Source of the DNA: Bacilli bacterium
GTDB taxonomy: Bacteria > Bacillota_I > Bacilli_A > RFN20 > CAG-826
DNA length: 46,960 bases
Assembly (NCBI GenBank): GCA_017542885.1
Contig: JAFXWH010000034.1
Span: 1 to 46,960, forward strand
Direction: 5' to 3'
Below the pieces are notes generated by a model, which had not been told where the DNA came from, made no database searches, and saw only the letters and a list, made by a program, of their open reading frames with translations. The position numbers were made by a program, and so were the translations under genes. This document shows, piece by piece, positions 40,469 through 44,558 of the stretch (position 1 is its first letter; each line of letters starts with the position of its first letter).

Positions 40469-40578
40469 TATCGGTGCAAGGGAGATGAGTAATCTCACCT
40501 CGAACATAAATCGGGTCGATAAGGTGGCGTTTTAAAAGCCCCTTATTAACAACTGTGCGAAGCGAAAGGAGCAGAGTT

Positions 40579-42969
40579 ATGTTGAAAGTTAGAAAAAGAG
40601 ATGAATCGATCGTTGAATTTGATTTATCGAGAATCGAAAAGGCTATTGAGAGAGCCTTTGTCGCAGAACACAAAGAAGCAGATAAGAACATCATTGAGCT
40701 TTTAGCTCTCCGTGTCACAGCGGAGTTCAATAAGAAGGTCGAAAATGGCATCGTGAACATCGAAGACATCCAGGACAGCGTTGAAATCGTCTTGATCCAG
40801 GCTGGCTATGTTGATGTCGCTCACAGCTACATGGACTACCGTAAGAAACATGCGGATATCCGTGAAATCAAGAAGACCGAGCTCAACTACGCCACCGTCG
40901 TCGATAACTATCTCAAGATCAGCGACTGGCGCGTTAAGGAGAACAGCACCGTCACCTATTCCGTCGGTGGTCTTATCCTTTCGAACAGCGGCGCCGTTAC
41001 CGCCAACTACTGGTTAAGCCAGGTCTATGACAAGGAAATCGGTGATGCCCACCGCAACGCCGACATCCACATCCATGACCTTTCCATGCTTACCGGTTAT
41101 TGCGCTGGTTGGTCCCTTAAGCAGCTTATTCAGCAGGGCTTAGGCGGCGTCCCAGGCAAAATCACCTCTACCCCAGCTGGCCATTTGAGCACTCTTTGCA
41201 ACCAGATGGTCAACTTCCTTGGCATTATGCAGAACGAATGGGCGGGAGCTCAGGCATTCAGTTCCTTCGATACTTATCTCGCCCCATTCGTTAAGGTCGA
41301 CAACCTTACCTACAAGCAGGTCAAGCAGTGCATCCAGTCCTTCATCTTCGGTGTCAACACCCCATCCCGTTGGGGAACTCAGGCTCCATTCACCAACATC
41401 ACCCTCGACTGGACCGTCCCAGAGGATCTTAAGAACCTCCCAGCCATCGTCGGTGGCAAAGAGATGGATTTCACCTATGGTGATTGCAAAGCCGAGATGG
41501 ATATGATCAACAAAGCCTTCATCGAAGTCATGATCGAAGGCGATGCCAACGGCCGTGGATTCCAGTATCCAATCCCAACCTATTCCATCACCAAAGAATT
41601 CGATTGGTCCGACACCGAGAACAACCGTCTCCTCTTCACAATGACCGCCAAGTACGGCACCCCATACTTCAGCAACTACATCAACAGCGATATGAAGCCA
41701 AGCGATGTCCGTTCTATGTGCTGCCGTCTCCGTCTTGACCTCCGTGAACTCAGAAAGAAATCCGGTGGTTACTTCGGAAGTGGCGAAAGCACCGGTTCCG
41801 TCGGCGTTGTTACCATCAACATGCCACGTATCGCCTATCTTGCCACCAACAAGGAAGACTTCTATGCCCGTCTTGATGCCATGATGGATATCGCTGCCCG
41901 CTCACTCAGCGTTAAGCGTAAGACCATCACCAAGCTCCTTGAAGCTGGCTTATATCCATACACCAAACATTACCTTGGCTCCTTCAAGAACCACTTCTCC
42001 ACCATCGGTCTTGTCGGTATGAATGAAGCTTGCCTCAATGCCCGTTGGGTCAGAAGCGACCTCACCACTCAGGCTGCTCAGGACTTCACCGTTGAGGTTC
42101 TCAACCACATGAGAGCCCGCCTCTCCGACTACCAGGAGAGATATGGCGACCTCTACAACCTCGAAGCCACCCCAGCCGAATCCACCGCTTTCCGTCTTGC
42201 TAAGCATGACCGTGAGAGATATCCAGACATCATCACTGCCGGCGGAAATGGTGAGACCCCTTACTACACCAACAGCTCACACTTACCAGTCGGTTACACC
42301 GACGATATCTTCGCCGCCCTCGACATCGAAGACAGATTCCAGACCCTTTACACCTCTGGCACCGTCTTCCACACCTTCTTGGGCCAGCGTCTTCCAAACT
42401 GGGAGAGCTGTATGAAGCTCGTCCGTAAGATCGCTGAGAACTACAAGCTTCCTTACTACACCATGTCTCCAACCTATTCGATCTGCCAGGATCACGGTTA
42501 TATCAATGGTGAAGTCCACACCTGCCCAATCTGTGGTAAAGAAGCTGAAGTCTGGTCCCGTATCACCGGTTACTACCGTCCAGTTAAGAACTGGAACGAT
42601 GGCAAAGCCCAGGAATACAAGGATCGTAAGACCTACATTCCAAACGAGAACAGCCGTCCACACGCTCACGACAGCGCTTGCGAGTGCCACGAGCACGAAG
42701 AGAAAGCTTCTGCTCCAAAAGTGACCAAAGTCATGCTCTTCACTTCTCCAACCTGCCCAAACTGCAAGATGGCGAAGATGATGCTTGATAAAGAAGGCAT
42801 CGAATACGAGCAGATTGACGCTGTTTCAAACAAAGAGACGACCACTGCATTCGGTATCACCAATGCTCCAACTCTCTTAGTTCCAAATGGTGAGGCCTAT
42901 GATGCGTACGAGAACGCTTCCGACATCAGAGGCTACATCCAGAAGGTGAAAGGCGGAAATGCTGCCTGA
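40579..42969 (+). CDS. nrdD: Anaerobic (class III) ribonucleoside-triphosphate reductase with an N-terminal ATP-cone and a fused C-terminal CPNC glutaredoxin/NrdH-like domain
   Basis: Start at ATG 40579 (SD AAAGGAG); the ORF-track GTG at 40555 is rejected. Features seen are the ATP-cone KVRKRDESIVEFDLSRIEKAI, HIHDLSMLTGYCAGWSL and SMCCRLRL. There is also a Zn site CQDH..CPICG and the glycyl-radical motif SRITGYYRPV. These are followed by about 105 extra aa ending in VMLFTSPTCPNCKMAK... Confidence 0.92.
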   Translation: MLKVRKRDESIVEFDLSRIEKAIERAFVAEHKEADKNIIELLALRVTAEFNKKVENGIVNIEDIQDSVEIVLIQAGYVDVAHSYMDYRKKHADIREIKKTELNYATVVDNYLKISDWRVKENSTVTYSVGGLILSNSGAVTANYWLSQVYDKEIGDAHRNADIHIHDLSMLTGYCAGWSLKQLIQQGLGGVPGKITSTPAGHLSTLCNQMVNFLGIMQNEWAGAQAFSSFDTYLAPFVKVDNLTYKQVKQCIQSFIFGVNTPSRWGTQAPFTNITLDWTVPEDLKNLPAIVGGKEMDFTYGDCKAEMDMINKAFIEVMIEGDANGRGFQYPIPTYSITKEFDWSDTENNRLLFTMTAKYGTPYFSNYINSDMKPSDVRSMCCRLRLDLRELRKKSGGYFGSGESTGSVGVVTINMPRIAYLATNKEDFYARLDAMMDIAARSLSVKRKTITKLLEAGLYPYTKHYLGSFKNHFSTIGLVGMNEACLNARWVRSDLTTQAAQDFTVEVLNHMRARLSDYQERYGDLYNLEATPAESTAFRLAKHDRERYPDIITAGGNGETPYYTNSSHLPVGYTDDIFAALDIEDRFQTLYTSGTVFHTFLGQRLPNWESCMKLVRKIAENYKLPYYTMSPTYSICQDHGYINGEVHTCPICGKEAEVWSRITGYYRPVKNWNDGKAQEYKDRKTYIPNENSRPHAHDSACECHEHEEKASAPKVTKVMLFTSPTCPNCKMAKMMLDKEGIEYEQIDAVSNKETTTAFGITNAPTLLVPNGEAYDAYENASDIRGYIQKVKGGNAA

Positions 42970-43861
42970 TATCCTAATCATAGGCGGAGGGGCTGCGGCA
43001 ATGACCGCGGCCCTTTATTCGCTTAGAGCCGGAAGAAGCGTCAAGCTCATCGAGAGGCAAGCGTTCGGCGGTCAAATCGCCGACTCTCCAAGAGTTGAGA
43101 ACTTCCCATCCATCAAAGAGATCTCCGGACTTGAATGGTCCAATAACCTTTTCGAGCAGATCACCGCTTTAGGTGCTGAGTTCGAAATGGACGAGGTCAA
43201 ATCCATCGAAAAGAAAGGCGACAACTTCGTTGCCCATTGCGAATATGGCGACTATGAAGGTAGAGCTGTCATCATCGCCAGCGGTGTCAAACACCGTCAC
43301 CTTGGCATCCCTGGAGAAAACCTCAAAGGCGTCTCCTACTGTGCAGTCTGTGATGGCGCTTTCTACACTGGCAAAGACACGATGGTCATCGGCGATGCCA
43401 ATAGCGCGCTCCAGTATGCTTTGCTTTTAGCAAAAACCTCCCGTCACGTTGACGTTGTCACCCTCTTCGACAAGTTCTTCGCCGACGATATCCTTGTGAC
43501 CGCTTTGAAGGCACTTCCAAACGTCTCGATCTACCACAACTACAATTCCGTCTCCTTCAATGGTACGGATAAGGTCGAAAGCGTCTCCTTCGAAGGCAGA
43601 TTAGACAAGAAACCAATGACGATTGAGATCAATGGTGTCTTCGTCGCCATCGGACAGGTTCCGGACAATGAGAGATTCTCCAACGTCGTTGATTTGGAGA
43701 AAGGCTTCATCGTTACCGATGAGAATATGGCCACCAAGACCGAAGGCATCTTTGCCGCCGGTGATTGCAGGGTCAAAAAAATAAGGCAGCTCACCACCGC
43801 TTGCAACGATGGAGCGATTGCTGCCTTAAATGCTAATACCTATTTAACGACTCATTCGTAA
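42959..43861 (+). CDS. Thioredoxin-reductase-like flavoprotein with a CxxC centre but a degenerate NAD(P)H-binding site
   Basis: 300-aa ORF with FAD motifs IIGGGAAAMTAA and FAAGDC and the redox centre CAVCDG. The second Rossmann motif reads VIGDANSA (canonical GGGNSA). The HRRxxxR position reads TLFDKFF. The start overlaps the nrdD 3' end by 11 nt. Confidence 0.8.
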   Translation: MLPDILIIGGGAAAMTAALYSLRAGRSVKLIERQAFGGQIADSPRVENFPSIKEISGLEWSNNLFEQITALGAEFEMDEVKSIEKKGDNFVAHCEYGDYEGRAVIIASGVKHRHLGIPGENLKGVSYCAVCDGAFYTGKDTMVIGDANSALQYALLLAKTSRHVDVVTLFDKFFADDILVTALKALPNVSIYHNYNSVSFNGTDKVESVSFEGRLDKKPMTIEINGVFVAIGQVPDNERFSNVVDLEKGFIVTDENMATKTEGIFAAGDCRVKKIRQLTTACNDGAIAALNANTYLTTHS

Positions 43862-44550
43862 CCACGAAGTTCGACGTGTTCGATATTCTTATCAAGAATG
43901 GCCTTCCAAATGAGGGCCTTTTCTTTTGGTACAGGATGGAAGCCGTGTTCGATGCAGCTATCCCTATCGACATACTGCTGAAGGAAGAGACGCTTGGCAC
44001 CGGCTAACCAAAGAGAGATCTTCTCAATGTCTTCGGTCTCATGGAATTCCTCAACGATGGTCGTTCTGAATTCGTAATCGACGAGATCGGTACTCATAAG
44101 ATATTCAATCGATTCTTCGATGTCTTTGATATCGACATTCTCGGTTCCGATCGTCTTGGCATACTTCTCTTTGCTGTTCTTGATGTCCATGGCGACATAG
44201 TCCACTAGACCCTGCTCAACCGCGAGCTTAAGAATCTCTGGACGAGAGCCGTTTGTATCAAGTTTGACCTTGTATCCTAATTCCTTGATTTCACCCAATT
44301 TCTCCAGCAAATCCGGCATTAAAGTGCATTCGCCGCCGGAAACGCATACGGCATCAAGGACGTTCTTCCTCTTCTCTAAGAAGGATTTGATGTCCTCCCA
44401 AGGGATGAAAGCAGGCTTCATGCCAGGAATGACCAAAGCCGCGTTATGGCAATACGGGCAACGCATGTTGCAGCCCGCGAAGAAAAGAGTGCAGGTGATG
44501 TTGTCGTCAAAATCTAGAAGCGAAAGCTTCTCCATTCCACTGAAATCCAT
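43852..44550 (-). CDS. nrdG: Anaerobic RNR activating enzyme (radical SAM)
   Basis: The CNMRCPYCHN CX3CX2C cluster lies near the N-terminus, with GGECTL also present. Start taken at ATG 44548-44550; a GTG at 44554-44556 (ORF track) is an alternative. Its 3' end overlaps the TrxR-like gene by 10 nt (convergent). Confidence 0.88.
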   Translation of the reverse strand: MDFSGMEKLSLLDFDDNITCTLFFAGCNMRCPYCHNAALVIPGMKPAFIPWEDIKSFLEKRKNVLDAVCVSGGECTLMPDLLEKLGEIKELGYKVKLDTNGSRPEILKLAVEQGLVDYVAMDIKNSKEKYAKTIGTENVDIKDIEESIEYLMSTDLVDYEFRTTIVEEFHETEDIEKISLWLAGAKRLFLQQYVDRDSCIEHGFHPVPKEKALIWKAILDKNIEHVELRGYE

Positions 44551-44558
44551 ATGCACAT

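Follow-up and report, generated by a model that had tools for sequence, protein, structure and literature searches.

Introduction

Most class III ribonucleotide reductases (RNRs) have a double-cysteine finger loop, and the source of their electrons is still open (PMC9669993). The beta-A Cys, the double-cysteine finger loop, and the active-site Glu of NrdD have been tied to thiol chemistry, not to formate chemistry (PMC9669993). According to the accounts of Wei et al. 2014 given in PMC9669993 and PMC4493059, the NrdD2-type class III RNR of Neisseria bacilliformis is reduced by thioredoxin (Trx), thioredoxin reductase (TrxR), and NADPH. A grx::nrdD fusion receives only a passing mention in PMC6187632. 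Here, we analyze contig JAFXWH010000034.1 of assembly GCA_017542885.1 (genome coded G000), a stretch of 46,960 nt referred to below as the window, whose numbering is used for the coordinates. In this window, an nrdD gene encoding a class III RNR with a fused redoxin domain is directly followed by a gene, trxR, for a TrxR-like flavoprotein in which the residues that bind NADPH have been replaced. We propose that this flavoprotein may be a private, pyridine-nucleotide-independent reductase of the redoxin domain tethered to NrdD.

Several TrxRs with altered NADPH sites provide the closest precedents. TRi of D. vulgaris (DvTRi) carries GEGxxAxN and TQGK and was reduced by neither NADH nor NADPH in experiment, its reducer being unknown, whereas the NADH-using TR3 retains GGGxxAxE (PMC5627308). 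The TrxR of T. acidophilum (TaTR; 3CTY) lacks HRR; it was initially described as independent of pyridine nucleotides, and NADH dependence was demonstrated later (PMC6262447). The clostridial ferredoxin-dependent flavin TrxRs (FFTRs) resemble the reductase of the window in being flavin TrxR homologues that kept the flavin adenine dinucleotide (FAD) and CxxC motifs and lost both NADPH motifs, and in belonging to anaerobic Firmicutes with a ferredoxin-run metabolism. DTR of Gloeobacter (5J60) has a C-terminal aromatic tail (PMC8154056) that is absent from the reductase. A search of one literature collection, which included the motif, found no paper describing an NrdD-linked reductase of the type reported here. 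New in the present work are an evolutionary series of three states (a, b, and c), an approximately unbiased (AU) test against the FFTRs, an association with NAD kinase, a housekeeping paralogue related to the FFTRs, and the comparison with TRi and TaTR as precedents.

The FAD and dithiol sites are preserved and the NADPH site is replaced

The product of trxR, designated type c of an NrdD-linked clade, matched Pfam Pyr_redox_2 (3.4e-38) and scored 286.5 bits against the NCBIfam model for thioredoxin-disulfide reductase (TIGR01292), under the cut-off of 343.45. Its motifs were placed by HMMER alignments to solved TrxRs (4zn0, 7aaw, and 4gcm) and by a global alignment to E. coli K-12 TrxB, which together reproduced the placement of GDANSA and TLFDKFF made by eye in a preliminary description of the locus. 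As stated there, the FAD motif GGGAAA, the redox center CAVCDG, and GIFAAGDC are intact, and the NADPH-binding signatures are lost. In full, GDANSALQ stands for GGGxxAxE and TLFDKFF for HRRDxxR. One detail of that description needs correction, as the loop of E. coli K-12 TrxB reads GGGNTA and not GGGNSA. In the reductase, VDVVTLFDKFFA occupies the position of VxxxHRRDxxRA in NADPH enzymes, none of the four 2'-phosphate positions (canonically H, R, R, and R) holds Arg or His, and Y153 replaces Glu or Asp in the pocket. The AlphaFold2 (AF2) model, a check suggested in the preliminary description, displayed a confident TrxR fold (pLDDT of 93.4) that retains the beta-alpha-beta of its second Rossmann unit and has a last helix extending to residue 299 of 300. 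Foldseek comparisons matched this model to low-Mr TrxRs in the flavin-oxidizing (FO) conformation with TM scores of 0.90 to 0.93. The alignments and the predicted structure show a two-domain low-Mr TrxR fold with an intact FAD site and a preserved CAVC dithiol, and indicate that the NADPH-binding residues are swapped for a different, strictly conserved set. Read from the sequence, from which the geometry of the pocket is also deduced, the site appears to have turned aromatic and hydrophobic instead of merely degenerate.

Comparison with the NADPH-dependent TrxB enzymes of Staphylococcus aureus (4GCM), Bacillus cereus (7AAW), and E. coli (1TDE) revealed a common fold (TM of 0.88 to 0.91), with identities of 38 to 39% to 7AAW and 4GCM and 31% to 1TDE. 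The FAD motifs and the second-domain CxxC are shared, as are some of the Trx-contacting positions, namely the LKG preceding and the AFY following the CxxC. The enzymes differ in that TrxB has GGGxxAxE and HRRDxxR, whereas the reductase has GDANSALQ and TLFDKFF and falls short of the TIGR01292 cut-off. In addition, TrxB serves free thioredoxin, whereas the reductase has a fixed place in an operon next to an NrdD that carries its own redoxin (Table 1).

Table 1. Coordinates, in the window, of trxR, its motifs, and the adjoining nrd genes
Feature	Position	Strand	Details
trxR, TrxR-like flavoprotein gene (type c of the NrdD-linked clade)	42959..43861	+	300-aa open reading frame
FAD dinucleotide motif GGGAAA (GxGxxA/G), intact	42983..43000	+	From residue 9; G9 and G11 invariant in the homologue alignment
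Redox-active disulfide center CAVCDG, intact	43340..43357	+	Residues 128-133
Remodelled pyrophosphate loop GDANSALQ (canonical GGGxxAxE)	43391..43414	+	GDANSA from residue 145 (43391-43408); canonical GGG(D/N)(S/T)A
Remodelled 2'-phosphate site TLFDKFFAD (canonical HRRDxxRAE)	43460..43486	+	TLFDKFF from residue 168 (43460-43480)
FAD-binding motif GIFAAGDC (GxFAAGD), intact	43745..43768	+	From residue 263
nrdD, class III RNR	40555..42969	+	804 aa; Pfam NRDD 3.6e-193 and ATP-cone; NF006126, 1128 bits
NrdD C-terminal Trx/glutaredoxin (Grx)-fold domain with CPNC motif; presumed substrate of the reductase	42691..42927	+	Pfam Glutaredoxin 4.4e-8, Thioredoxin 9.7e-6; PF00085 genome match C79:42691-42927
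nrdD stop/trxR start overlap	42959..42969	+	11 nt (ATGCTGCCTGA); read from the sequence
nrdG, radical S-adenosylmethionine activase, convergent	43852..44556	-	TIGR02495 NrdG2 1.4e-58; 10-nt overlap between the 3' ends of nrdG and trxR

The replacement residues are conserved under purifying selection

Homologues were sampled as the 120 best database cluster representatives (56 to 97% identity), mostly from rumen and gut metagenome-assembled genomes (MAGs) labelled Bacilli or Erysipelotrichaceae. The motifs CxxCD, GD[AG]N[ST]A, and TLFxxF[FY] were present in 120 of the 120 clusters. In the loop, D146 (100%), A147 (93%, with G in 9 of 120), and Q152 (99%) take the places of the canonical G, G, and E, and T168, L169, F170, and F174 are each conserved at 97 to 100%. 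Sixteen clade-specific positions were found, including nine in the NAD(P)H motifs (D146, A147, Q152, Y153, T168, L169, F170, F174, and D176) and six elsewhere in the same pseudo-NADPH domain. The C-termini of the clade members are short and variable. Comparison with close orthologues gave ratios of nonsynonymous to synonymous substitution rates (dN/dS) of 0.03 to 0.09 for the reductase, and type-c motifs were found in all 26 genome loci with at least 50% identity. The recurrence of the same replacement residues in all clusters and in all of these loci, together with the low dN/dS, indicates that the pocket has been rebuilt and maintained and is not decaying. A single in-frame TAA was observed within the TrxR homologue match in four Clostridia genomes (L096, L108, G072, and G215), which may reflect overhang of the match, a sequencing error, or a genuine interruption.

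The reductase is linked to a redoxin-fused, thiol-type NrdD

A purine-rich stretch, GAAAGGCGGAA, just precedes the 11-nt overlap of nrdD and trxR, an arrangement that indicates translational coupling of the two genes. Alignment of NrdD to the T. maritima enzyme (4coi) matched GYCAGW to C125 (the beta-A Cys), MCCR to the SCCR finger loop, and YNLE to E495. Judged from these residues, NrdD has the features of a thiol-dependent (NrdD2-like) class III RNR, with a CPNC Trx/Grx domain as a C-terminal fusion. The NrdD core is separated from this redoxin domain by HAHDSACECHEHEE, a segment rich in His and Cys (positions 42661-42702).

In the 26 type-c loci, a redoxin-fused nrdD directly upstream and/or an nrdG close downstream was found wherever the flank suffices, and the redoxin domain of NrdD is kept upstream of trxR in every related locus that extends into nrdD. 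At identities of 41% or lower, the loci hold conventional trxB genes, which have GGGDSA and HRRDxxRA and no nrdD beside them. The 11-nt gene overlap and the presence of a fused nrdD and/or nrdG at all related loci with 50% identity or more whose flanks are long enough support the apparent dedication of the reductase to the CPNC domain tethered to NrdD. In two Clostridia MAGs (L023 and L031, 5918-7243), trxR is followed by genes for a flavodiiron protein (383 aa, with ODP beta-lactamase and flavodoxin domains) and a 51-aa rubredoxin and then by a convergent nrdG, which places an O2/NO-scavenging pair next to an oxygen-sensitive RNR.

The N. bacilliformis NrdD2, as it is presented in the sources cited above, shares with this system the double-cysteine finger loop, the beta-A Cys, the active-site Glu, and a reductant of the thioredoxin fold that is recharged by a member of the TrxR family. 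The system of the window appears to differ from that account in that its redoxin forms part of NrdD itself, a private paralogue serves as the reductase, and the ultimate donor is predicted not to be NADPH.

Type c arose inside an NrdD-linked clade and apart from the FFTRs

Maximum-likelihood trees were constructed from which the DTR, DDOR, TaTR, and DvTRi sequences were left out, their distance being judged from bit scores only. The type-c reductases formed a monophyletic clade (support of 100/100), and the clostridial FFTRs (6GNA, 6GNC, and two MAG paralogues) formed another (98/90). The AU test rejected the union of the two (p = 0.021). The bit scores of the reductase were 195 to 200 for Firmicute and archaeal NADPH-dependent TrxRs (NTRs), 150 for TaTR, 139 to 146 for AhpF, 113 for the Gloeobacter DTR (5j60), and 82 to 92 for the FFTRs (6gna, 6gnc, and 6gnd). 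The FFTRs also differ in length and in motif, being about 20 residues shorter (FFTR-type paralogues have 281 to 291 aa versus 300 aa, with residues 4 to 296 of the reductase aligning to residues 8 to 284 of 6gnc) and their replacement residues being unrelated (GYNKEA...VPRYKDE). The sister of the FFTR clade is the other TrxR of the genome and not the NrdD-linked reductase. That housekeeping trxB (C21:2914-3795, also L002:1483-2394 on the minus strand), located at an lgt-trxB-rapZ-whiA site, likewise lacks HRR (GKGFQA...ITPEEEYEGE) and branched with the FFTR clade with support of 98/89. A nearly identical second lgt-trxB copy was present on C71 (fragment at C71:9-521) and probably reflects strain heterogeneity in the MAG.

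NrdD-linked TrxRs fall into three states. State a has the loop GGGxSA and the 2'-phosphate site HRRxxFR and forms a basal grade, exemplified by nrdG-nrdD-trxR in genome G033. State b, with 12 loci (100/96), has GGGNSALQEA and VVQNLDFLTGE, and state c, to which the reductase of the window belongs (100/100), has GDANSALQYA and TLFDKFFAD. The state b loci are from Clostridia (L091, L095, L098, L102, L104, L105, L108 to L110, L112, L114, and L115); they retain the glycine loop and have lost the arginines and the loop Glu, and their genomes have NAD kinase. The succession of a redoxin-fused nrdD and trxR is common in Clostridia, in which 20 more pairs were found in a sample of 200 genomes. A pattern-based search for related loci returned only unlinked TrxRs or FFTRs; the NADPH-type relatives linked to nrdD came from the Clostridia genomes. 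States b and c pair with each other in the trees (99/94), and the pair falls within state a, indicating that the type-c reductase descends from an NADPH-type enzyme that was already dedicated to NrdD and that its arginines were lost independently of the FFTRs.

These results bear on the preliminary description, which named FFTR and DTR proteins among its precedents and suggested an electron path from ferredoxin or flavodoxin through this flavoenzyme to the CPNC domain. The dedication to the CPNC domain holds on the evidence of the gene overlap and the linked loci. Membership of the FFTR lineage is contradicted by the bit scores, the trees, and the AU test, and membership of the DTR lineage by the bit score. 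The phylogenetic placement envisaged there put the reductase in a clade of its own, inside a larger group of NrdD-linked TrxRs with NADPH types at the base. The best reading of the sequence data is that type c represents a low-Mr TrxR relative of the NAD(P)H-independent type with its own origin, its own motif, and a single client.

NADPH is an improbable donor

The NAD kinase families PF01513 and PF20143 were not found in genome G000, which is 88% complete, and glucose-6-phosphate dehydrogenase was likewise absent. A convincing NAD kinase match was obtained in only 3 of 18 genomes of the same genus, those without a match including a 95%-complete assembly in three contigs, and in only 3 of 22 other type-c genomes, the remainder including assemblies that are 93 to 95% complete. 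NAD kinase was present in 6/6 type-a and 11/12 type-b genomes (17/18 together). Since these genomes are kin, the pattern is an association and not a test. Loss of NAD kinase was considered as the cause of the motif change and rejected, since the NAD kinase-positive members of the genus share the type-c reductase and the HRR-less housekeeping enzyme and the type-b genomes have the kinase. Thus, the motif change preceded the loss of NAD kinase. The lineage may be NADP free.

JGI labels many of the homologues "thioredoxin reductase (NADPH)," and NADPH TrxRs are the best matches in sequence and fold, as expected if the protein were an ordinary NADPH-dependent TrxR. This identity, or that of a decaying pseudo-enzyme, is nevertheless very improbable, because none of the 120 clusters retains the His or any of the three Arg of the 2'-phosphate site, the TIGR01292 score is under the cut-off, and the genome search did not detect NAD kinase; decay is further contradicted by the dN/dS values and the invariance of the new residues. 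The loss of these four residues, combined with the failure to find NAD kinase in G000 and in most type-c genomes, effectively excludes NADPH as the donor, as far as can be judged from sequence.

Ferredoxin or flavodoxin as the likely donor

Genome G000 encodes a HydC/HydB/HydA-type [FeFe] hydrogenase (C74:10615-14828), an Rnf cluster truncated at the end of its contig (rnfCDGEA; C123:2128-6461), a sole Flavodoxin_5 protein (C97:10648-11184), and one WCGPC thioredoxin. Pyruvate:ferredoxin oxidoreductase (PFOR) was missing from the assembly and present in five of five type-c relatives tested. A ferredoxin/flavodoxin-centered metabolism is therefore in place. The genome search did not find a pyruvate formate-lyase-like gene, and hence no endogenous source of formate is visible. 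The hydrogenase, Rnf, and flavodoxin of this genome and the PFOR of its relatives make ferredoxin or flavodoxin a plausible donor of the reductase. The HRR-less, FFTR-related housekeeping TrxR of the genome likewise speaks for the use of low-potential carriers.

DvTRi is the precedent for a TrxR that dispenses with both pyridine nucleotides. Both enzymes have Thr where the canonical His would stand, and in both the second loop residue is acidic and the loop Glu is gone (GEGxxAxN in DvTRi and GDAxxAxQ here); the Trx-contact residues are retained as well. They differ at the 2'-phosphate site (TQ/NGK versus TLFD) and in that DvTRi is monocistronic and serves free Trx1; the comparison is one of motifs and not of trees. 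By analogy with DvTRi, the reductase is likely to be independent of pyridine nucleotides.

We therefore favor, with a probability of about 50%, the interpretation that the protein serves the redoxin tethered to NrdD as a private reductase and is independent of pyridine nucleotides, ferredoxin or flavodoxin being the likely donor. In the proposed mechanism, a ferredoxin or flavodoxin acting as a one-electron carrier would be reduced by PFOR, the HydABC hydrogenase, or Rnf, and the reduced carrier would deliver its electrons directly to the FAD of the reductase in place of NAD(P)H. The FAD would then reduce the CAVC disulfide, and the resulting dithiol would, after the usual domain rotation, reduce the CPNC disulfide of the NrdD tail. 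The tail would finally re-reduce the active-site cysteine pair of NrdD after every turnover.

Several observations weigh against this interpretation. The reductase clade is unrelated to FFTR or DTR, and ferredoxin dependence is thus not inherited by homology; since it originated independently in an NrdD-linked clade with ordinary NADPH enzymes at its base, kinship gives no ground for transferring the donor from known systems. The operon has no linked gene for a ferredoxin or flavodoxin, the regular-expression scan of the linked loci having detected only the rubredoxin and flavodiiron protein of L023 and L031. A search of the 88%-complete assembly for small 2x[4Fe-4S] ferredoxins with the pattern CxxCxxCxxxC(P) found no such open reading frame, the motif occurring only in HydB, HydA, and RnfC. 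The flavodoxin was rejected as a dedicated partner, since homologues of the C97:10648-11184 protein are missing from G203, G148, G031, G032, and G005 and therefore do not co-occur with type c. A basic docking face was likewise looked for and rejected: the net charge of the reductase is about -9, as acidic as that of ordinary NTRs, versus about -3 for FFTRs. Finally, the Rossmann beta-alpha-beta is intact in the model, a formal GxGxxA (GDGNSA) is present in 9 of the 120 members, and TaTR uses NADH despite being HRR-less (PMC6262447).

The last three points are those expected if the enzyme were an NrdD-dedicated reductase that exchanged NADPH for NADH through loss of the 2'-phosphate arginines, with F170, F174, and Y153 packing on the NADH adenosine. 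Such a switch is the main rival interpretation, and we consider it somewhat unlikely. TaTR illustrates that loss of HRRxxxR alone is no proof of independence; it is a general archaeal TrxR with no link to NrdD, likened to the reductase by this loss and not by its loop sequence. In favor of the switch, the sister type b, in which mainly the arginines changed, keeps GGGNSA; AhpF prefers NADH, and the E. coli sequence has EFA at the position of HRR in TrxR; and NADH would be the sole pyridine nucleotide in a cell without NAD kinase. Against it, Asp and Ala replace two Gly and Gln replaces Glu in the type-c loop, so that three of the five residues defining it differ, all of them conserved, and the new Asp would introduce a negative charge beside the pyrophosphate site. 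The residue at the His position of the reductase is, unlike that of AhpF-type NADH sites, not acidic. The NADH-dependent TR3 keeps the canonical loop, and DvTRi, whose loop is similarly degenerate, is not reduced by NADH (PMC5627308).

The conversion of the pocket to an aromatic and hydrophobic site, as opposed to simple degeneration, and the lack of any co-occurrence signal for ferredoxin or flavodoxin could also point to another partner or role, such as a different redox protein, direct docking of PFOR or the hydrogenase, an O2-scavenging chain with rubredoxin and the flavodiiron protein, or a small cofactor, either hydrophobic or resembling a flavin, that occupies the pocket. The reducer of DvTRi is itself still unknown (PMC5627308). 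The nrdD-trxR-flavodiiron protein-rubredoxin operon is compatible with the scavenging chain but was seen in only the two linked loci mentioned above among those examined. Moreover, rubredoxins generally have too high a potential to serve as reductants of a flavin/dithiol pair. All loci with sufficient flank show the linkage to the NrdD redoxin, which argues that disulfide reduction is the conserved job, and we regard another partner or role as distinctly unlikely.

Extending the favored ferredoxin/flavodoxin interpretation to the whole cell, a broad lineage of small-genome rumen and gut Bacilli devoid of NAD kinase and free of NADP(H) would run both general thiol redox and deoxyribonucleotide synthesis on ferredoxin or flavodoxin, using two TrxRs that lost NAD(P)H binding independently, one FFTR related and housekeeping and the other NrdD dedicated. 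The rebuilt aromatic pocket of the latter would then be a new kind of donor site. Taken in its entirety, this extended scheme is unlikely.

Implications

The electron source, an open question for most class III RNRs, has here its reductant chain written into the operon, in the form of a fused redoxin and a private reductase, and the evolution of the NrdD-linked reductase can be read across three states, the NADPH, QNL, and TLF types. If ferredoxin or flavodoxin is indeed the donor, the type-c enzyme would represent a further independent origin of pyridine-nucleotide-independent flavin TrxRs, beside FFTR, DTR, DFTR, and TRi, and the first such TrxR tied to a single client enzyme. The nrdD-trxR module occurs widely among uncultured Firmicutes of the rumen and gut. 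To judge from the predicted site, the bacteria of these habitats that possess the type-c reductase probably draw the electrons for making their DNA precursors from a donor that is not NADPH, and the type-c module may explain how DNA-precursor synthesis proceeds in bacteria that seemingly lack NAD kinase.

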